A stretch of 64,000 nt of DNA from Candidatus Bathyarchaeota archaeon (GTDB lineage Archaea > Thermoproteota > Bathyarchaeia > 40CM-2-53-6), in assembly GCA_963733055.1 (NCBI GenBank), contig CAVTBR010000003.1, positions 672,001 through 736,000 on the forward strand, given 5' to 3'. Of this stretch, positions 36,725 through 47,891 are shown in pieces (the first letter of the stretch is position 1; each line of letters opens with the position of its first letter). The notes under the pieces were generated by a model. The model did no database searches, was not told where the DNA came from, and saw only the letters and a list, made by a program, of their open reading frames with translations. Both the position numbers and the translations under genes were made by a program.

Positions 36725-37789
36725 CTAATTGGCTCGTGCTTCGGGAAGGGGTAGGTATTCACAGATTGGGGAGGGCTTCTCCAAGATGCGGTTTATAGTT
36801 ACTTCGCCGACCATTCGACAATATTTTGATATTTGACCTAGGTTCCAGACTATAATCCTGAGGCTGGCTGCGATAACTGGGTCCTTCACGTAGGCGAGAA
36901 CTTTCTGAGTCAATTTTCTTTCGTCGTTTTCCGCTGACTCGACCATTTCCACCGCCTCGTTGGACATGGCGATGTCTCCGGTGAGAAGGGCTTTCATGGT
37001 TTGTTCTGAGGTCTTGGTTGTCTGTGTTGCGAATTTTGATATGTCGTTCAATATGGCGTCGCTAGTGACCTCCTTATCCTTCAACGCTAGGACTTCGTTT
37101 GCGATGTTCTCTGCTGAATCAGCCATTTCTTCAAGCATCTTAGCGACAACTCTGTTCCCCGCGATATGGACGGGAGACTCAATCCCGATCTTCATGCCCA
37201 CACTCCGATCGCGTATGGCGAGCAGCAACTGCCGCACAATGAGCCAATATATTCTATCTGACTCCTCCTCCATATGCGTGACTTCAGTCGCGAGTTCGGG
37301 CCGCCTCTCAACCAAGGCTTTGATTGAAACGTCAACCATCGAGGTGATGATGATGTGCAGACGGCGCATAAGGCCGTAGATAGGGAAGCGTGTGGGGTCG
37401 ACGAAACTCTGGAGGGTTATCTGTTTGATTGTTTGCTCCACTATACTGAGTCCGGTGAGTCGTTGTGTCGTCGCCCGTATCTCTTCCAGATGGGCCTTCT
37501 TCAATTCATCCTTGGCCTGGATCTGAATGGTGTCATGGCCGAGGATGTAGTTGGCGGTTATGACGCGGGTCAGGAGATGGGTTGAGTTGCAGAGATCGGC
37601 GTTCACTATGCAATTCCTGATTTCGTCCCGTTTGTGTTCGGTGCCGGGGAAGAGTTTCAGTGATCCATCGTCCTCTCGTTTAATGGATACAATGTCTCCG
37701 GCCTTGAGCTTCACATCTTCAACCCAGTCTCGAGGCAGGGAGACGGTGAGAGTTGAGTACCCTACGCGCTGCACTTTACGAGCTTCCAA
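36725..37789 (-). CDS. AbrB-PhoU phosphate-uptake-regulator family protein (paralog 1)
   Basis: RKVQRVGYSTLTVSLPRDWV AbrB domain; PhoU repeats EEESDRIY. Confidence 0.9.
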   Translation of the reverse strand: MEARKVQRVGYSTLTVSLPRDWVEDVKLKAGDIVSIKREDDGSLKLFPGTEHKRDEIRNCIVNADLCNSTHLLTRVITANYILGHDTIQIQAKDELKKAHLEEIRATTQRLTGLSIVEQTIKQITLQSFVDPTRFPIYGLMRRLHIIITSMVDVSIKALVERRPELATEVTHMEEESDRIYWLIVRQLLLAIRDRSVGMKIGIESPVHIAGNRVVAKMLEEMADSAENIANEVLALKDKEVTSDAILNDISKFATQTTKTSEQTMKALLTGDIAMSNEAVEMVESAENDERKLTQKVLAYVKDPVIAASLRIIVWNLGQISKYCRMVGEVTINRILEKPSPICEYLPLPEARAN

Positions 37790-39772: not shown

Positions 39773-40408
39773 CTATTGGTCAGCCCATGCAGGAATGCAG
39801 TGGAACGGGCATTTGGAGCTGAATTCAGGTATTGGGTTTGCCCGAACGAATTCTCTGCCTTTCTTGAACGCCAGATAATTCAGGCCGATTAGCTCTTCTT
39901 TCTTCCCAGACATGAAGTACTTGATCGATTCCTTGGTCCGGTCGTCGTCAATTTCTGGTGCACACAGGCCGATGAAGGCGCCAAACATCACTGCATTTGC
40001 GAATATTTTGGTATCGTTGATTCCTTTTGATTGGATCTCGCCCTTCAGTTGGTCGGCCATTTCTGTGGCGGGTATACCCAGGCTCTTTACATCGTCTCGA
40101 TCTACTCCGGTTTCTACAAGCGATGAATTGTACAGGACTAGCCCGTTGGGACGGAGGTAGTTTAGAAATTCCATTGAAGGTTGATTCATGATTAACTCAA
40201 TATCAGGCTCTTCTACGATTGGGTTGTCGACTTCTTCATCTGAGATTACAACGTAGCATTTTGCTTTGCCACCGCGTGTTTCCGGTCCATATGATGGGGT
40301 ATATGCAACGTGTTTTCCTTCCAGCATTGCGGCGTAGGCGATGTAGTCGCTCAGCAGTAGGACGCCCTGGCCACCGTGGCCTGCTACAAGCATCTTAGTC
40401 TTGGTCAT
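39773..40408 (-). CDS. 2-oxoacid:ferredoxin oxidoreductase gamma subunit
   Basis: AGHGGQGVL, PSYGPETRGG, ANAVMFGA. Confidence 0.92.
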   Translation of the reverse strand: MTKTKMLVAGHGGQGVLLLSDYIAYAAMLEGKHVAYTPSYGPETRGGKAKCYVVISDEEVDNPIVEEPDIELIMNQPSMEFLNYLRPNGLVLYNSSLVETGVDRDDVKSLGIPATEMADQLKGEIQSKGINDTKIFANAVMFGAFIGLCAPEIDDDRTKESIKYFMSGKKEELIGLNYLAFKKGREFVRANPIPEFSSKCPFHCIPAWADQ

Positions 40409-41205
40409 TCTTTCTCAACTCCAAAGCTGTCTTTGTATAACCCCAACGGGAATTTCTTCACCATCTGTTCGTAAACAAAACGCTTAGCGTCAAGCACCGG
40501 CATCTTCCAGTTGATGGCGCATGTGCTCAGGAGCTCCACGAATGCGAACCCTCCGAGGGCTTGAACTTTGAATGCGTTCTCCACGGATTTCTTTGCATCG
40601 AGCAGGTTCTTTATCGTGTACACTTTGCCCCTTTGGCTAGAAATCTCTTGAACCGCCAGGCTCACCCGTTTGACGTATGAGGCGCCATCCATTCCCGCAA
40701 CGAGCTTTGACGCGTCCAGCTCTGTTCCAGTTAGATGGGCGTCTCTGCCGAACGGCGTTGTGCTTGTAACCTGGCCTTCCAGGGTTGTGGGCGCCATTTG
40801 CCCTCCGGTCATCCCATAAATTGCGTTGTTCACAAGGAATATCGTAATCGGTGTCCCTCTCTTTGCCGCGTAGACAAGTTCTAAAAGCCCGATCGAGGCC
40901 GCGTCCCCATCACCCTGAACCGTAAAAACCGTCAACTCAGGCCGTACATGTTTCAAACCCGCGGCCACTGCCGGCGCCCTCCCGTGTGCCGAGACTACAT
41001 GATCGAAGTTGAGGTAGTTGTAGGCGAGAACACTGCAACCGACCGAGTCGATCATCACGGTTTTCTCACGTACACCTAAATCGTCAATCGCCGCAGCTAT
41101 CAGCCTCGTAAGCGTGCCGTGTTCGCAGCCTGCACAGTAATGCGTCGGGGTATCGGTTAACGACTTCAGTTTTCCAACTTTAACTCGGAGCGCTAGTTGG
41201 CTCAT
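40405..41205 (-). CDS. 2-oxoacid:ferredoxin oxidoreductase beta (TPP-binding) subunit, VOR-type
   Basis: HYCAGCEHG, VGCS, HGRA, QGDGD...NNAIYGMTGGQ. Confidence 0.93.
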   Translation of the reverse strand: MSQLALRVKVGKLKSLTDTPTHYCAGCEHGTLTRLIAAAIDDLGVREKTVMIDSVGCSVLAYNYLNFDHVVSAHGRAPAVAAGLKHVRPELTVFTVQGDGDAASIGLLELVYAAKRGTPITIFLVNNAIYGMTGGQMAPTTLEGQVTSTTPFGRDAHLTGTELDASKLVAGMDGASYVKRVSLAVQEISSQRGKVYTIKNLLDAKKSVENAFKVQALGGFAFVELLSTCAINWKMPVLDAKRFVYEQMVKKFPLGLYKDSFGVEKE

Positions 41206-42278
41206 ACCGCGACCACCTCCAACCTCCTTAGTTTGCTCTCTATCTCTGCTTCAGTCGGTACGAGACCTCCCCATTTTCCTAGAAAATCAACAGTAACATC
41301 GCTGCCAACCGCGAGCTTCACATCCTCAATCATTTGTCCTGTATTCAGCTCGACGACTAGGAATCGTTTACCTTCTGACGCAAGTTTCTTGAGTTGTAAT
41401 TTGGGAAATGGCCACAGGGTTATCGGCCGGAAGAGTCCGACTCTCATCCCTTTGGAGCGCAGCTTGTTAACTACGCCTTTCGCTATTCGGGAGACGATTC
41501 CGAAGGCCACGATGACCGTCTCGGCGTCTTCAGTTCGGTATTCTTCGAACATGACATCGTTTGCTTCGGCGTTTCTGTATTTCTCGAAGATTCTTCCAAT
41601 GTGTTTGAAGTGCTTCTGCTGGTCGAGTTCTAGCGAATTGAGAATGTGAGGCGCTCTATCCTTTGCGCCCGTGGTTGCCCAGGATGACACGTCATACTGT
41701 TCGGGCGTGAATTCCGGGAATTCTACATCTTCCTTAAGCTGTCCAGTAAATGCATCGCTGAGGATTAGGACTGGGTTTCTGTACTTGAAAGCCAGATCGA
41801 ACCCGACTCTCGGCAGGATAGCCATTTCCTGGACCGTTGCGGGTGCAAGAACGAGTAGGTGGTAGGTCCCGTGACCACCACCCTTGGTTGACTGGAAATA
41901 GTCACTCTGTTCCGGGCCGAGGTTTCCTAACCCCGGTCCCGCTCTGCATATGTCAGCTACTAAGAATGGGAGTTCCATGCATGCTGCATATGAGAGACCT
42001 TCCTGCTTCAAACTGAAACCTGGGCTCGATGTCGCGGTCATTGCCCGGGCACCGCCTGAGGCGGCGCCGATTACCATGTTAATTGCTTCGAGTTCGCTTG
42101 CGGCCTGGAGGAAGAATTTGTACTCTGGATACTTGTTGCCGCCAAATTCTTTCGCCAGTGTTTCCGGGATTTCGCTTGAGGGCGTGATCGGATACCCGAA
42201 GTAGGCGTTGAGTCCTGCTTCCAATGCGCCGTATGCGAGGGCTTCGTTTCCTTTCAAGTAAACTCGTTTCTTGGCCAT
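41202..42278 (-). CDS. 2-oxoacid:ferredoxin oxidoreductase alpha subunit, VOR (ketoisovalerate)-type
   Basis: KGNEA, GYPITP, TSSPGFSLKQE, RAGPGLG, KGGGHG, RPITLWPFP. Confidence 0.93.
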   Translation of the reverse strand: MAKKRVYLKGNEALAYGALEAGLNAYFGYPITPSSEIPETLAKEFGGNKYPEYKFFLQAASELEAINMVIGAASGGARAMTATSSPGFSLKQEGLSYAACMELPFLVADICRAGPGLGNLGPEQSDYFQSTKGGGHGTYHLLVLAPATVQEMAILPRVGFDLAFKYRNPVLILSDAFTGQLKEDVEFPEFTPEQYDVSSWATTGAKDRAPHILNSLELDQQKHFKHIGRIFEKYRNAEANDVMFEEYRTEDAETVIVAFGIVSRIAKGVVNKLRSKGMRVGLFRPITLWPFPKLQLKKLASEGKRFLVVELNTGQMIEDVKLAVGSDVTVDFLGKWGGLVPTEAEIESKLRRLEVVAV

Positions 42279-42530
42279 CTATGCTTTCACCTGGATTTCG
42301 CTGATGGCAAAGTCTGGGCAGACCCAGTAGCAGATTGCGCAACCGGTGCACTCTCCCCTTGTTCCCCGATAAGAGAACTCGACTGGGTGGAAGCCAGCAT
42401 GGTTCAGCTTTGTTGAAAATTTCAAGTTACCTTGTGGGCATGTAACGACACAGAGCTCGCACGCTTTGCATCGCTCTTCAAGAATCTTAACGTCGGCTCT
42501 AGGTTGAAGCACGGTTGTTACCTGGCTCAA
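42279..42530 (-). CDS. 2x[4Fe-4S] ferredoxin (delta subunit)
   Basis: CKACELCVVTCP and CTGCAICYWVCP. Confidence 0.92.
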   Translation of the reverse strand: MSQVTTVLQPRADVKILEERCKACELCVVTCPQGNLKFSTKLNHAGFHPVEFSYRGTRGECTGCAICYWVCPDFAISEIQVKA

Positions 42531-42946
42531 ACTTCTAAAACCTCTTTCTTCTCGACAAAACTCTCCAAGAGGTAACGCAGCATGGCGTAATGTTGTTCCT
42601 CATCCAACGCTAACATTGTCAGCAGGGTCTTCAGGTGCGGATCCCGAACCTGAGATGAGGCGGACGTGAACAGTCGCAAGGCCTTCTCCTCCATGTCCAT
42701 GAGCTCAAGAATATCCTTCCGAGTTTCACCAATTGGGGCGAGTGCTTCCCATTTGTCGCTCGCTAGGTAGCTGAGGGCGCAGCGGATGACGTCCGCGTGC
42801 TGCATCGAGTCCCGCATCAATTTGGCGTAGAGAAGTTTTGCAACACTGTGTTTGGTTTCTCTTACCTTTCGGGCGTAGACTTCGGTCTCGTGTTCTTCAT
42901 GATCGAGCTGACCTTTTAGCAAGTCCCCGAGTTTTTGGTTCAGCAT
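42527..42946 (-). CDS. Ferritin-like (rubrerythrin-type four-helix) protein
   Basis: DSMQH and DEEQH helix motifs; coupled to the ferredoxin gene. Confidence 0.75.
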   Translation of the reverse strand: MLNQKLGDLLKGQLDHEEHETEVYARKVRETKHSVAKLLYAKLMRDSMQHADVIRCALSYLASDKWEALAPIGETRKDILELMDMEEKALRLFTSASSQVRDPHLKTLLTMLALDEEQHYAMLRYLLESFVEKKEVLEV

Positions 42947-43135
42947 AATCCCGACCACGAGAAAATGGCGGGGTAATTACAATTAGAAGTTCTGCTGCTA
43001 TTCTATATATTATACTGAGACGTCCGTGGACATAGCTGAATACATCACAGGGTTCCTGCAGGAGATATGCGAACCAAAAAGCATCCCCATTTCTAAACCT
43101 CCTATCCGCTTCAGTAACTCGGAAGACATACTGAA

Positions 43136-44350
43136 CTATCGTGAAGGCGGCGCTCGAGGGTCCTTAAGCATTAGCGCCACCAGTAATGTCAGTGCGGCAG
43201 GTATCATGGCGTTCAACGCAACAGCTCTTCCTACTCCTATGACGAAAAGAGATGCCGTGATTATTGGCGAAATGACGGTGGCCACTGACTGGGATGTCGT
43301 CGTGAGCCCGAGGGCGGTCCCGGTCCTGCCCTTGCAGGTATCAACCATTAGCGCTTGCATAATTGGGAAGATTGCGCCGCTGAAGAAGCCCATCATAATG
43401 GCAACCAACAGATCAAGGATCAGATTTGAGGTTGCGAAAAAAAGCGCATACGACAATATCACGGCAAGGGAAATTGAAGCCAACAATCTGTTCCTACGCC
43501 AAAGATCCGACGCTCCACCTAGGACAAGTTTACCGATTCCTCCCGAAATGAAAACTACTGCCGCGAAGAGGGCGGAGGACAATATCCCAAAATGCATGAC
43601 TTTAAAGAAATAGTAGGGCAAAAACACCACTTGCCAAACGGAAGCCCAGGTCGCCAAAAGCGCAAAGGCCATCATGAGAATTACGTTCCTTTGTCTGAGA
43701 AGCTTCAAGGCGTCGCTGCCCAGTCTTATCCGTGCAGAATCATTACCAGACGAGGAAAATTTGCTTTTCAGCCCGACTACACCAGCGATTACTAAGAGAC
43801 CTAGCGACGGCGCAGCGAAGAAGGCAGTTCGCCAGCTTCCTGAAAGAGCGTAGGCGAGGCCTCCCAATGAGAGACCGGCAACGCTTCCCGCATCAAAACC
43901 AATATAGAATATGCCCAAAGCCAGTCCCTTGCGCTCCTTGAAATATGATGCAACCGCAGCCATAGCAACGGGCCAGAAGATTCCCTCACCGAAGCCGCTC
44001 ACGAGGCGAAAGACAAACGCTTCGAAGAAACTCGACGCCAGTCCTATCAGCCCTGTGAACAGCGTGAACACCACTAGACCGACGATCAAGACGGACCTTC
44101 TTCCATACCTGTCCGACAGGTGACCTGCAAGGAAAACGAAACACAGAACACCAATGTATTGAGCTGAACCGAGGAGACCGATTCCGTAGTTCGTCAACTG
44201 AAGATCCGGAATCATCAGCGCCAACACGGACGCGAGGACAGTTCGGTCAGCGGCGTAAACGGCGTAACCGACGGTCATGATCAGTAGGAATAGAATTGAG
44301 GACCAGCGGTAGTTGAGCCATTTGGCTCGAAAGGCGAGTATTCGAGACAA
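43136..44350 (-). CDS. MFS transporter
   Basis: GHLSDRYGRR motif A, FRLVSGFGEG, about 12 TM; start TTG 44350. Confidence 0.92.
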   Translation of the reverse strand: MSRILAFRAKWLNYRWSSILFLLIMTVGYAVYAADRTVLASVLALMIPDLQLTNYGIGLLGSAQYIGVLCFVFLAGHLSDRYGRRSVLIVGLVVFTLFTGLIGLASSFFEAFVFRLVSGFGEGIFWPVAMAAVASYFKERKGLALGIFYIGFDAGSVAGLSLGGLAYALSGSWRTAFFAAPSLGLLVIAGVVGLKSKFSSSGNDSARIRLGSDALKLLRQRNVILMMAFALLATWASVWQVVFLPYYFFKVMHFGILSSALFAAVVFISGGIGKLVLGGASDLWRRNRLLASISLAVILSYALFFATSNLILDLLVAIMMGFFSGAIFPIMQALMVDTCKGRTGTALGLTTTSQSVATVISPIITASLFVIGVGRAVALNAMIPAALTLLVALMLKDPRAPPSR

Positions 44351-44369
44351 ATCGGCTGCTCTCTTTTGC

Positions 44370-45155
44370 CTAGGTTGGAACGGGTATGGCATTTGCCATA
44401 GCCATATCCGATAGGGTGTACTTTCTGAGGTTCGCAACCTGGGTTGGCGTTAGGATCGTACATGCGAAACCCCAATGAAACGAAATCCAGTCTCCCTTCT
44501 TCGCTCCAGCTACGAAACTCTTCCCCTGAACTTGCGCAAGAACCTTCGTCATCGTCGGCTTTCCCAAATTCAATACGCCGTTTACCCGCTGCAAAGGCTC
44601 ATAATCGACAACCAGATTACCGCTCTCATCCGCCTCCAGAACTCTCCCCCATGAGATACGGCATTTGTCCATCAAGCCCCCAACCGCCTCGTCCTTCCCC
44701 GCACCGCTCGCGAGGGCTTCGGGAGCAGTCCCCATTGTGGAGAATGAGTTGAACACGTGAAGGGCGTGGTGAGGAAATGGAGCGAAAGTTTTGGTTTCAA
44801 AGAATTTCTTGATATGTTCTTTGGGGAATTTTGACTTGAATCTGGCTGCGAGATGGTCGTAGAAGTCTCCGGGGGAGATCTTCTGAAGATAATCGTTGCC
44901 GATCCAATACGCCTCCGCGGCCCTGTAATCTAGGGGATCCTGGGCTCCGAGTGATTCGGCTATGAATCGGATGTATGGGTAAGCGGCTTTGAAGCCCCTG
45001 AGGGCGTCGATCAGTTGCTCGTTGCGCGTGTTGCTCAGGCAGGAATCGAATAATACGTCATTTTCGTCTGGGCCGCAGTAGCCAAGACGATTGGGCATGA
45101 AGCTGTGCCGCGCCGCCAGAATTGCGCCATCCATCAGATTGGGTCTCGTCTGCAA
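44370..45155 (-). CDS. DUF6390-like protein
   Basis: ARHSFMPNRLGYCGP, EAYWIGN, PHHALHVF, DKCRISWG, GDWISFHWGFAC; family recognised from memory. Confidence 0.7.
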   Translation of the reverse strand: MQTRPNLMDGAILAARHSFMPNRLGYCGPDENDVLFDSCLSNTRNEQLIDALRGFKAAYPYIRFIAESLGAQDPLDYRAAEAYWIGNDYLQKISPGDFYDHLAARFKSKFPKEHIKKFFETKTFAPFPHHALHVFNSFSTMGTAPEALASGAGKDEAVGGLMDKCRISWGRVLEADESGNLVVDYEPLQRVNGVLNLGKPTMTKVLAQVQGKSFVAGAKKGDWISFHWGFACTILTPTQVANLRKYTLSDMAMANAIPVPT

Positions 45156-45160
45156 ATCTG

Positions 45161-45394
45161 CTATGACTCCTCCGAGTCAATACCCCGAATCATCTTCCAC
45201 AAATCCAAGGTCTCCAATGCCTCTTTCTTGGAGAGCACCTTGATGGCAAAACCACCTTGCACGAGAACGTAACTGCCGAGATTCGGCTTTACAAGAGAGA
45301 CGTTGACATTGTCTCTGATTCCATCCTGGCCATAGTCCACTGAGGCAAATTCCCCAGTTATCGCCACTACTTTTCCAGGATAAGTGAGGCACAA
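45161..45394 (-). CDS. hypC: HypC/HupF-family chaperone (His replaced by Gln)
   Basis: TTG 45394 gives MCLTYPGKVV; GSYVLVQGGFAI. Confidence 0.82.
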   Translation of the reverse strand: MCLTYPGKVVAITGEFASVDYGQDGIRDNVNVSLVKPNLGSYVLVQGGFAIKVLSKKEALETLDLWKMIRGIDSEES

Positions 45395-45555
45395 GGCCAA
45401 CCGCTGATGGAAAAATCTGTAGGCGACCTATATGTCTGTAATGCCAATTCCCAAAGGTGAATTCGGTAGCCGTTGTCACAAGGCTTCTGATTGTGAGAAT
45501 TCAATAGGTACTTTCTTAACCCGTAGCTCTCAGAGCAACAACAGATGGAAATGCC

Positions 45556-46245
45556 TTGGCAAAACCAGTCGAAGTAGTGACCTCCGCAGAAGGGGAGGTT
45601 TTCGATGTGGAACTCGAAGTCAGCATACTCAGAGAAAATGATCGATTAGCGAAAGAGAACCGGAGCAGATTGGATGCGAAGGGGGTTCACGCGGTAGATG
45701 TTATGGGCTCCGTTGGTTCGGGTAAAACTTCCCTGATTAAGTCGATGATTTCCCGACTCAAGAAAGACCTACGAATTGCCGTCATTGAGGGCGATGTCAC
45801 GACCACGATTGACTCGGACATTATCTCCTCAGAAGGTATACCCACGGTTCAAGTCAACACGGGTAAAGAATGCCACCTTGATGCGAACCTTATTCGAAAA
45901 GCGTTGAATAAAATCCCCCTTGATACGCTTGACTTGATCTTCATTGAGAACGTTGGAAATCTCATCTGCCCGGCTGAGTTTCCGTTGGGGTCGGACAGGC
46001 GGCTAGTGGTCATTAGTGTAACTGAGGGCCCCTACATGGTCCTTAAACATCCGATGATGTTCCGGGACGCAGCAGTGGTTGCGATCAACAAGATCGACGT
46101 TGCGGCAGCTATGGGCGTCGACCCAGACAAACTCAGCTCTGATGTCGCTCACATCAACCCTCGAGCGGCCACGGTTCACACAAGCTGCAGGAACGGGACG
46201 GGCATTGCTGAGGTTATTGAGAAGCTTGGGCTGAAGAATAGGTAG
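45556..46245 (+). CDS. hypB: Nickel-insertion GTPase HypB
   Basis: GSVGSGKT, TGKECHLDA, ENVGNLICPAEF, KHP, NKID. Confidence 0.95.
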   Translation: MAKPVEVVTSAEGEVFDVELEVSILRENDRLAKENRSRLDAKGVHAVDVMGSVGSGKTSLIKSMISRLKKDLRIAVIEGDVTTTIDSDIISSEGIPTVQVNTGKECHLDANLIRKALNKIPLDTLDLIFIENVGNLICPAEFPLGSDRRLVVISVTEGPYMVLKHPMMFRDAAVVAINKIDVAAAMGVDPDKLSSDVAHINPRAATVHTSCRNGTGIAEVIEKLGLKNR

Positions 46246-46257
46246 AGGGTGCTTCAC

Positions 46258-46665
46258 GTGCATGAGCTTGCGATTGCAACTTCACTGACTGAGGCACTTT
46301 TAGAACTGGTCAAGGAACGCTCTGCAAGTAAGGTCTTGGAGGTTCAGCTAAAGGTTGGGAAGCTTCGGGTTCTATCGATCGAGCAACTGAAGTTCTCCTA
46401 TGAGATACTGTCCAAAGGCACGGCATTAGAAGGATCGACCTTGAATGTTGAAGAGACGCCGGGATTTGCGAGATGCACAAACTGTAACTATGCTGAAAAA
46501 CTTGAAACTGACGATCTCTCATTCCACTTTAGCTTACCACAAATGACCTGCCCTCGATGTGGGGTGAATTTGATCCTAGAAGGGGGAGATGAATGCCTCA
46601 TAACGAGAGTTCGCATGGTAGCTCCATCAGCCAGCTCTGTGATGTCGATGAATGGGCACGACTAG
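46258..46665 (+). CDS. hypA: Nickel metallochaperone HypA
   Basis: GTG 46258 gives the MHE Ni site; CTNC...CPRC Zn site; GGDEC. Confidence 0.93.
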   Translation: MHELAIATSLTEALLELVKERSASKVLEVQLKVGKLRVLSIEQLKFSYEILSKGTALEGSTLNVEETPGFARCTNCNYAEKLETDDLSFHFSLPQMTCPRCGVNLILEGGDECLITRVRMVAPSASSVMSMNGHD

Positions 46666-46787: not shown

Positions 46788-47891
46788 GTGAAGGATTTGG
46801 AAATCAGAAAGGTACAACGTGTCGGCCACTCAACCCTAACGGTTTCCTTGCCCCGGGATTGGGTAAGGCAAGTTGGTCTCAGACGGGGCGGTGTCGTTAC
46901 ACTTCGACTTTCCGAGTTCGGAGAGTTAGTCGTCACTCCAGGCAGCGAGATGGAGTCCGACGAAATGACCGTTTGCAAGATCAATGCCGACGCTTGCAAG
47001 GACAGCGAACTTCTCGCCAGAATGATTACAGGCAACTACATCCTGGGACGCGACACGACCATCATTTCCTCCACTACGGATCTAACTGCTGAACAAATCA
47101 ACGCCATCCGCAACTCAACAAGACGCCTAAGCGGATTAGGTATCGTCGAACAGACTCCTAAGGAGACAGTAATCCAATGCTTCCTCGACCCGTCAAAGTT
47201 CCCCATCACAGGCCTCCTCTCACGACTTCACAAGGTCGCCGTTTCAATGCTGGAGACAGCACTACAAGCATTGATGGAACGCAAGTTCTCCCTCGCGCTA
47301 GAGGTTCTGGAGCTTGAAAACGAAGCAGACAGATTATATTGGCTGATACTACGCCAGATCTTCCGCGCGATCTCAAGGATTCCATTGTCACGACATGTCG
47401 GTATTGAGTCCGCCACACATGCCGTCGGTTACAGAGCTGTCTCAAAATACCTAGAGGAGACAGCCGACTGCAGCGAGTCAATGGCCAACCACATATTAAC
47501 CATCGCTGAAGAGAGATACACTGAATATGTTTCAATTATTGATGCAGTGTGTAAGTTCGGAGTCGAAACACTTGCGACCTCGAATGGTGCGATGAACTCC
47601 TTCAGCCTGTTGGATGTAGAACTCGCAAATCGTACCATTGAACAATCCAAGAGACTAGAAGAGGAACAGAAGAAACTCATTGACCTGGTTATCTCATCCG
47701 TGCAGGATCGGAAGCTCTGCCTTGTGCTCAGAGGAATAGTTTGGGACCTCGCTCGAATCTCCCACCTATCACAAATGGTCTCTGAAGTAGCTTTGAACCG
47801 ATATCTTGAAAGCAACACTGAAGTCTCTCAATTCTGGAAAGAGCGCAAGAGCGGGGGAGACATTCAATACCTGAAGAAGATAGCAACCTAA
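46788..47891 (+). CDS. AbrB-PhoU regulator family protein (paralog 2)
   Basis: RKVQRVGHSTLTVSLPRDWV; ENEADRLYWL; aligns with 36725-37789. Confidence 0.9.
   Translation: MKDLEIRKVQRVGHSTLTVSLPRDWVRQVGLRRGGVVTLRLSEFGELVVTPGSEMESDEMTVCKINADACKDSELLARMITGNYILGRDTTIISSTTDLTAEQINAIRNSTRRLSGLGIVEQTPKETVIQCFLDPSKFPITGLLSRLHKVAVSMLETALQALMERKFSLALEVLELENEADRLYWLILRQIFRAISRIPLSRHVGIESATHAVGYRAVSKYLEETADCSESMANHILTIAEERYTEYVSIIDAVCKFGVETLATSNGAMNSFSLLDVELANRTIEQSKRLEEEQKKLIDLVISSVQDRKLCLVLRGIVWDLARISHLSQMVSEVALNRYLESNTEVSQFWKERKSGGDIQYLKKIAT

Follow-up and report, generated by a model that had tools for sequence, protein, structure and literature searches.

DUF6390, a HypC-homologous protein in a [NiFe]-hydrogenase maturation locus of a bathyarchaeon without detected HypD, HypE or HypF

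The available excerpts of recent papers treat HypA to HypF as needed for every [NiFe] hydrogenase (PMC12134894, PMC12130793), and those of a 2025 review call all six proteins necessary and name no natural exception (PMC12134894). HypC is partnered by HypD in the HypCD scaffold, on which the Fe(CN)2CO moiety of the cofactor is built (PMC12130793, PMC8454700), and HoxV/HupK and HoxL/HupF of O2-tolerant hydrogenases are described as accessory scaffolds and HypC paralogues (PMC12134894). For the Candidate Phyla Radiation, Jaffe et al. (2020) reported a protein family, some of whose members are hypC-like, that is common to both hydrogenase forms, and the excerpts of that study at hand contain nothing on maturation gaps (PMC7304191). 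Literature searches for natural systems without HypD, or without HypD, HypE and HypF, returned only work on Escherichia coli mutants from the listings and abstracts covered, and found no paper that names the family DUF6390. Here we describe a locus from Candidatus Bathyarchaeota archaeon (assembly GCA_963733055.1), found in a stretch of 64 kb (contig CAVTBR010000003.1, positions 672,001 to 736,000), the whole of which is called the window below. The locus, which encodes HypA, HypB, HypC, a DUF6390 protein and a transporter of the major facilitator superfamily (MFS), is best explained as a [NiFe]-hydrogenase maturation module of an archaeon that encodes two hydrogenases elsewhere and in which no HypD, HypE or HypF was found. 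It looks like a variant of [NiFe]-hydrogenase maturation that has not been described before, and DUF6390 is very probably a hydrogenase maturation factor of some kind.

The five genes are arranged as two divergent, closely packed operons, hypC-DUF6390-MFS and hypB-hypA (Table 1), with a gap of 5 nucleotides between hypC and the DUF6390 gene. All of them lie where an earlier note, made from the letters of the window, had placed them, each with the support of family scores, and the note's observation that the window holds no hypD, hypE, hypF or hydrogenase genes is likewise borne out. Its description of the locus as a hydrogenase-less Hyp module has to be given up. The genome (2.88 Mb in 3 contigs, 96% complete, 5.3% contamination, no N) carries two intact [NiFe] large subunits, both on contigs other than that of the window. 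The first (RICGVC...DPCYGCATH) belongs to an Hdr/MvhD-type operon and the second (RTCGIC...DPCFGCMDR) to an Mrp/Nuo-type operon; one of the hydrogenases is group-3c-like and one group-4-like, and a HycI-type protease is encoded beside each of the two large subunits. The genes hypA, hypB, hypC and DUF6390 are single-copy in the genome. The genome check for hypDEF and hydrogenases that the note had proposed thus divides: the absence of hypDEF extends to the whole genome, and that of hydrogenases stops at the window.

Despite its [NiFe] large subunits, the host genome does not encode the canonical set of six proteins. Profile searches of this genome returned no HypD, no HypF (best match 29.6 bits against a cut-off of 466) and no HypE above the cut-off (best match 143.7 bits against 251.6). 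The HypF matches were considered as pieces of HypF and rejected; they cover single regions of the HypF model, far under the cut-off, and from the domain order of HypF they are probably Sua5/YrdC-, acylphosphatase- and Kae1-like proteins. The candidate for HypE, an AIR-synthase-like protein (G000:C3:411967-413019; locus L096:6998-8017), lacks a C-terminal Cys, has unrelated neighbours and was also rejected. Similar AIR-synthase-like matches below the HypE cut-off occur in 13 of the 43 HypD-negative DUF6390 genomes introduced below.

The DUF6390 protein of the window contains the motifs GYCGP, PHHALH, DKCRISWG and GDWISFHWGFAC. An AlphaFold2 model based on a 79-sequence alignment (predicted local distance difference test, pLDDT, 90.7; predicted template modelling score, pTM, 0.90) has eleven helices (residues 10-165), followed by a beta barrel (strands 168-235) and a final helix (237-256). 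The best match in a structure search of 48,161 chains is HypC of T. kodakarensis (2z1c_A; Z 5.5, root-mean-square deviation 2.1 Å over 71 of 71 residues), in which model residues 165-254 are superposed on HypC residues 2-72, and E. coli HypC ranks second; when the whole model is given to Foldseek, HypC again heads the list and only the HypC part is matched. An hhalign comparison with a 38-sequence HypC profile (95.8%, E 6.7e-9) places Cys165 on Cys2 and His227 on the His51 column. The Pfam HypC model finds a weak trace in DUF6390 (14 bits against 28.5, E 0.059). By these profile and structure comparisons the C-terminal domain is a HypC homologue, though not a family member by Pfam's rule. The earlier note had seen a HypC-like segment with a His at the C terminus, and this is in fact a whole domain, which has the OB barrel, the C-terminal helix and a His at the His51 position, as HypC does, and is without the free N-terminal Cys of HypC, the aligned Cys165 being internal.

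For the N-terminal domain alone, a wide structural search gave carrier-protein helix bundles as best matches (Z 5.8), below the level that is meaningful for a helical domain, and an Atlas search gave no usable match. A HypD-like nature of this domain, suspected from GYCGP and PHHxxH on the one side and the HypD motifs GPGCPVC and CGxHxH on the other, was rejected after hhalign against an 11-sequence HypD profile (0.12%). As modelled, DUF6390 joins a HypC-homologous OB domain to a helical domain for which no relative of similar fold could be recognised; a new fold is not claimed. Four residues, Cys27 and His130 of the helical domain and Cys165 and His227 of the HypC-homologous domain, are the only invariant side chains of the family (79 of 79 diverse members), and each of the 80 full-length sequences taken from the window plus 80 genome loci has the same four, a count that leaves out one fragment (L020). 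The family is large, with 967 cluster representatives at 50% identity (E <= 0.001). It includes five types of fusion to helix-turn-helix (HTH) domains (PadR in 15 cluster members, MarR in 17, and GntR, XRE and ArsR in 1-3 each) and one fusion to an EamA transporter. The name "hydrogenase maturation factor" occurs on 3 of 120 listed homologues, as an automatic designation of the Joint Genome Institute (JGI).

The stand-alone HypC encoded next to DUF6390 differs from canonical HypC at one ligand position. It reads SYVLVQGGFA, with Gln at the site of His51, which is His in all four solved HypCs to which it was aligned. Its start is probably the second TTG, at 45394, giving MCLTYPGK, and the start at 45400 in the list of open reading frames (ORFs) lies a few codons early; with the start at 45394, Cys2 is kept. 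The protein is hence a family member by score from which one canonical ligand, His51, is missing. Among 61 HypCs adjoining DUF6390, Cys2 is kept in all, and the His51 column holds H in 15, Q in 12, Y in 12, F in 8, N in 5, D in 5, S in 2 and A in 2. The control set consisted of 30 HypD loci from four phyla, 28 of them with a HypC-like ORF within 2 kb; all 35 such ORFs have His, compared with 15 of 61 near DUF6390 (Fisher 2.2e-14). The exchange of His that had appeared in the window, where HypC keeps Cys2 and has Gln for His, is real and general: the partner HypC has lost the His which DUF6390 always keeps.

DUF6390 takes the phyletic place of HypD, HypE and HypF in several phyla. Among 50 genomes with DUF6390, 48 encode a [NiFe] large subunit (PF00374), 7 HypD, 6 a HypF over the cut-off and 7 a HypE over the cut-off, 13 more having only the AIR-synthase-like HypE matches mentioned above; 43 of the 50 are without HypD, HypE and HypF, and one of the genomes in which none of these was found, G232, is a single 3.6-Mb chromosome. 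Two phyla were sampled regardless of DUF6390. In Chloroflexota (201 genomes, at least 85% complete), 115 genomes have a large subunit, of which 91 have HypD, 19 DUF6390, none both and 5 neither (89, 19, 0 and 5 of 113 when two unpublished HypD-positive genomes, G410 and G288, are set aside), and the genomes without a large-subunit match at E <= 1e-8 include two with DUF6390 and one with HypD. The DUF6390 tree spreads the gene over many orders of this phylum. In Patescibacteria (251 genomes), the 53 genomes with a large subunit comprise 13 with HypD, 23 with DUF6390, none with both and 17 with neither, and DUF6390 is found in none of the other 198. Hence HypD and DUF6390 never overlap among the 168 large-subunit-positive genomes of the two phyla, and DUF6390 genomes have a large subunit in 48 of 50 cases, in 19 of 21 in Chloroflexota and in 23 of 23 in Patescibacteria. 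In the window's own class, HypD occurs in 158 of 201 genomes and DUF6390 in 2. In the window's genus, large subunits are present in G000, G152, G182 and G200; G000 and G182 encode DUF6390 and no HypD, G200 encodes HypD and no DUF6390, and G152, which is 80% complete, has neither.

The seven HypD-positive DUF6390 genomes comprise five from Acidimicrobiia, one from Thermaerobacter and a metagenome-assembled genome (MAG) labelled bacterial. In this MAG, the contig with DUF6390 is probably a binning error, given its archaeal gene order and its grouping with the window (98% support). Two contigs from MAGs labelled bacterial (Acidiferrales and Methylomirabilota), L014 (DATIYC010000073.1) and L018 (DATKOK010000102.1), show a Bathyarchaeal gene order; their DUF6390 sequences fall inside the Bathyarchaeia clade (L014 with the window, 98%), and both are probably binning errors.

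The gene neighbourhoods link DUF6390 to hydrogenase maturation. A scan of one genome per species gave 587 relatives, of which the best 80 loci were taken; close kin of the archaeal query are over-represented among these, because the search used 14 closer sequences. All ORFs of the loci were clustered, representatives were checked with Pfam, and genes were counted anywhere in the locus. Per 80 loci there are 60 with HypC, 42 with HypA, 36 with a HycI protease, 33 with a [NiFe] large subunit and 14 with HypB, and in addition 31 with EamA, 19 with MFS, 16 with a family-5 solute-binding protein and 16 with NifU/Rieske. Within 1.5 kb of DUF6390, HypC is encoded in 60 of 80 loci and an EamA or MFS transporter in 43. 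Both kinds of neighbour separate the genomes by HypD content, as HypC lies within this distance in 37 of 43 HypD-negative and 1 of 7 HypD-positive genomes, and a transporter in 30 of 43 and 1 of 7, respectively. The gene arrangement of the window recurs in Bathyarchaeia loci. In Patescibacteria, DUF6390 lies within group-3b-type hydrogenase operons, for instance EamA-DUF6390-small subunit-large subunit-hypA, and in Nitrososphaerales hypC-DUF6390 adjoins a group-4 large subunit of 412-413 residues in which ERICGICSFAH and DPCFGCMDR are intact. The large subunits of Nitrososphaerales MAGs (L097:2546-3784, L098:2528-3766 and L099:4660-5901) are Nuo-like and belong to a nuo/mrp-like operon; these relatives of ammonia oxidisers have a group-4-type hydrogenase, and HypD, HypE and HypF were not found in their genomes. 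No further conserved unknown gene was detected in the 80 loci, most clusters of unannotated ORFs being antisense shadows. The EamA and MFS proteins resemble carriers of carboxylates, amino acids or organic anions, with matches far under the cut-offs.

We hypothesize, with a probability of roughly 0.5, that DUF6390, the His-less HypC and the transporter constitute the iron-side scaffold of a [NiFe] maturation route that is independent of HypD, HypE and HypF. HypA and HypB would insert nickel in the ordinary way, and the iron side would be served by the tight operon hypC-DUF6390-MFS. The four invariant residues of DUF6390, to which the HypC-like and the helical domain contribute two each, may come together in one putative metal site and hold the iron moiety of the cofactor there, as Cys2 and His51 of HypC do jointly with HypD in the canonical scaffold. 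The contribution that HypD makes to HypC in the latter would here fall to the helical domain. The stand-alone HypC, equipped with Cys2 only, could ferry the iron moiety to the apo large subunit, after which HypA and HypB would add nickel and the HycI-type proteases encoded beside the large subunits would finish the processing. The adjoining transporter, MFS here and EamA in most bacteria, would belong to the module. The suggestion of the earlier note that DUF6390 is an alternative scaffold with its own transporter agrees with both the gene neighbourhoods and the phyletic pattern. A wider form of the proposal is more tentative, and we consider it possible rather than probable: a second route to the iron half of the active site, independent of HypD, HypE and HypF, would exist and be widespread, with Bathyarchaeia, Nitrososphaerales, Patescibacteria and many Chloroflexota among the groups that use it. 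Its core would be made up of DUF6390 as a self-contained scaffold of HypC plus partner, a His-less HypC and a dedicated EamA or MFS transporter, which would supply or remove a small molecule replacing the cyanide made by HypE and HypF, and the diatomic ligands would come from a new source or the iron would carry a different set of ligands.

Several observations speak against the scaffold proposal. DUF6390 is unrelated to HypD and has no set of Fe-S cysteines, and therefore cannot supply the redox chemistry of HypD. Around DUF6390, no neighbour genes that make cyanide or carbon monoxide were found. The exclusion is not universal, since DUF6390 occurs together with HypD, HypE and HypF in 5 of 5 Acidimicrobiia and in one Thermaerobacter MAG. 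The Fisher values of the phyletic pattern (1.8e-17 and 1.9e-4) treat related genomes as independent, which they are not, and make the case look stronger than it is, and the incompleteness of MAGs inflates the number of genes called absent. The PadR, MarR and other HTH fusions suit a ligand-sensing domain better than a scaffold, and a MarR-fused DUF6390 ends an actinobacterial-type hydrogenase cluster. Finally, the 17 of 53 large-subunit-positive Patescibacteria with neither HypD nor DUF6390 indicate that hydrogenase genes occur without either; five of the 17 were rechecked with the DUF6390 family profile and none matched, and orphan proteins lie beside hypC or EamA in eight of the 14 such loci that were examined.

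Two of these orphans recur (Table 1). One, of 258-261 residues, sits exactly in the DUF6390 slot in four Patescibacteria genomes (hypC-EamA-X-small subunit-large subunit-hypA), and the other, of 203-216 residues, is found beside hypC near the large-subunit genes in four other such genomes. Both were tried as relatives of DUF6390 and rejected (hhalign 0.13% and 1.5%, respectively), and neither has a Pfam family. As sources of cyanide or carbon monoxide, a radical-SAM gene was set aside as a singleton among the DUF6390 neighbourhoods, and thioredoxin-reductase and glutaredoxin genes were not accepted as conserved neighbours, being limited to three Saccharibacteria loci. In these (L024:6730-8033, also L034 and L084) a thioredoxin-reductase-like flavoprotein and a glutaredoxin are encoded directly after DUF6390 and could supply thiol redox chemistry. 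The locus with the MarR fusion (L100:5974-7233) continues with a second MarR gene (L100:7419-7931), and its cluster includes a large subunit, a protease, a TPR protein and an NHL protein, with NifU/Rieske in the sister locus L104.

The invariant Cys and His residues can also be explained if DUF6390 is a cytoplasmic Cys2His2 binder of nickel, or of another imported metal or ligand, rather than of the iron moiety. Such a protein would take over the substrate of the EamA or MFS transporter and pass it to HypA and HypB, and its HTH-fused forms would be the sensors of one-component regulators. That no side chains other than those of Cys and His are invariant fits this explanation, as do the position of DUF6390 next to hypA and hypB, a transporter within 1.5 kb in 43 of 80 loci, a family-5 solute-binding protein and ABC permeases beside it in 16 of 80 loci, the single EamA-DUF6390 fusion and the five types of HTH fusion. 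However, two of the four invariant residues correspond exactly to those with which HypC is known to bind the iron moiety, the transporters resemble carboxylate, amino-acid or organic-anion carriers (with matches far under the cut-offs) rather than known nickel carriers, and both the loss of His in the partner HypC and the mutual exclusion of DUF6390 and HypD, HypE and HypF in Chloroflexota and Patescibacteria are left unexplained, so we consider this explanation unlikely. About equally improbable in our judgement is that DUF6390 does no more than serve certain large subunits as an additional chaperone of the HypC type or as a holding factor, in the manner of HupF/HoxL or HoxV/HupK, and that unrecognised genes elsewhere make good the absence of HypD, HypE and HypF. 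The full HypD, HypE and HypF set alongside DUF6390 in Acidimicrobiia and Thermaerobacter is what would be expected of such a factor, the Patescibacteria with neither gene and their orphans beside hypC or EamA are in keeping with it, and DUF6390 is too small, with too few conserved polar residues, for an enzyme. An unseen pathway, on the other hand, would find little room in Patescibacteria genomes of 0.5-1.3 Mb, the neighbourhoods contain no other conserved unknown gene, and the zero overlap with HypD in 168 large-subunit-positive genomes from two phyla is difficult to reconcile with an accessory role.

The interpretation put forward in the earlier note, namely a Hyp module without hydrogenase whose task is a nickel centre other than that of hydrogenase, the nickel being destined for DUF6390 itself, had in its favour the absence of hydrogenase genes from the 64-kb window. 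It is now highly improbable and, in our view, already refuted, given the two [NiFe] hydrogenases of the genome and the restriction of DUF6390 to large-subunit-positive Patescibacteria (23/23), with 48/50 and 19/21 elsewhere, often in the same operon. Since DUF6390 tracks large-subunit genes, nothing suggests that a nickel enzyme other than hydrogenase is served or that DUF6390 is the nickel target. The note had also held that DUF6390 always accompanied by complete hypDEF and hydrogenase sets would speak against its reading: the hydrogenases do co-occur, and in most lineages hypDEF do not.

Table 1. Coordinates of the maturation locus in the window and of orphan genes from Patescibacteria loci.
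Feature	Coordinates	Strand	Basis or remark
MFS transporter gene, last in the hypC-DUF6390-MFS operon	43136..44437	-	PF07690, E 1.2e-59
DUF6390 gene, 261 aa	44370..45155	-	PF19927, 185.3 bits against a gathering threshold of 25; profile positions 4-239 of 244
DUF6390 C-terminal HypC-homologous OB domain and helix, residues 164-261, with Cys165 and His227	44373..44666	-	Structure search, hhalign
Codon of invariant His227	44475-44477	-	
Codon of invariant Cys165	44661-44663	-	
DUF6390 N-terminal all-helical domain, residues 1-163, with Cys27 (GYCGP) and His130 (PHHALH)	44667..45155	-	Models
Codon of invariant His130	44766-44768	-	
Codon of invariant Cys27	45075-45077	-	
hypC	45161..45394 (ORF list: 45161-45400)	-	PF01455, 64.4 bits against 28.5; TIGR00074, 54 against 48
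Divergent intergenic region between hypC and hypB	45401..45555	.	Coordinates
hypB, nickel-inserting GTPase	45556..46245	+	TIGR00073, 252.8 bits against an equivalog cut-off of 121.2
hypA, nickel metallochaperone	46258..46665 (ORF list: 46249-46665)	+	PF01155, 81.8 bits against 28.9
Orphan 1	L147:8101-8874, L148:8050-8823, L150:8112-8894, L152:4237-5010		Contains FHHFGV
Orphan 2	L149:9718-10365, L153:4593-5213, L156:7246-7854, L157:4372-4995		Invariant LPSCGG, several His

Both promoters of the divergent operons presumably lie inside the intergenic region between hypC and hypB. The start of hypA is probably the GTG at 46258, which gives the canonical MHE N-terminus, the listed start at 46249 being a few codons early; the HypA translation contains the CxxC...CxxC zinc pairs as CTNC..CPRC and scores under the NCBIfam equivalog cut-offs. 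Since a start at the listed TTG would make the MFS gene overlap the end of the DUF6390 gene by 68 nucleotides, the true start of the MFS gene is uncertain, and the best NCBIfam match of its product, to the anion:cation-symporter-like TIGR00893, is far under the cut-off. After the MFS gene follow a rubrerythrin-like gene of 143 residues (42527-42958) and a four-subunit 2-oxoacid:ferredoxin oxidoreductase (39773-42530), and ORFs of matching length (about 139, 83 and 358 residues) are again found after MFS in the Bathyarchaeia loci L015-L017 and L019. Two paralogous regulators of the AbrB(MazE-like)-PhoU type flank the region (36725-37789 and 46788-47891), one of them directly downstream of hypA. 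The remainder of the window is ordinary archaeal housekeeping, with SMC, an ABCE1-like ATPase, topoisomerase VI B, methionyl-tRNA synthetase, V-ATPase subunit I and MoeA.

If the pattern reflects biology, a large share of environmental hydrogen metabolism, in soil Chloroflexota, relatives of ammonia oxidisers, Bathyarchaeia and ultra-small Patescibacteria, would mature its enzymes by an unknown route, and surveys that infer hydrogenase function from the presence of hyp genes would have to be revised. The origin of carbon monoxide and cyanide and the need for HypD redox chemistry would then be testable in a natural minimal system of 3-4 small genes, and the DUF6390 system could simplify the heterologous production of [NiFe] hydrogenases.

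Compared with described systems, DUF6390 is closest to the iron-moiety chaperones HypC/HybG/HupF (PF01455). Its last 98 residues form the same OB barrel and helix, are aligned over the full length and keep the positions of Cys2 and His51; in contrast to these proteins, its Cys is internal at residue 165, the domain is fused to a helical domain of 163 residues, and its gene still has a separate hypC as neighbour. The likeness to HypD is one of distribution and possibly of role, as the two never occur together among large-subunit-positive genomes of two phyla and DUF6390 would give Cys and His ligands opposite a HypC fold. However, DUF6390 has no sequence relation to HypD, none of its [4Fe-4S] cysteines and neither its GPGCPVC nor its GFETT motif, and is shorter (261 versus about 365 residues); moreover, the chemistry cannot equal that of HypD, because HypE and HypF are missing along with HypD. 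HoxV/HupK and HoxL/HupF, too, are extra proteins encoded in hydrogenase clusters, with the task of holding the iron moiety or handing it on, which is the role proposed for DUF6390. HoxV/HupK are large-subunit homologues acting downstream of HypCD, whereas DUF6390 mostly occurs where no HypCD can exist. By analogy, the DUF6390 proteins of actinobacteria and Acidimicrobiia that occur alongside HypD, HypE and HypF could work like HoxV/HupK and HoxL/HupF.

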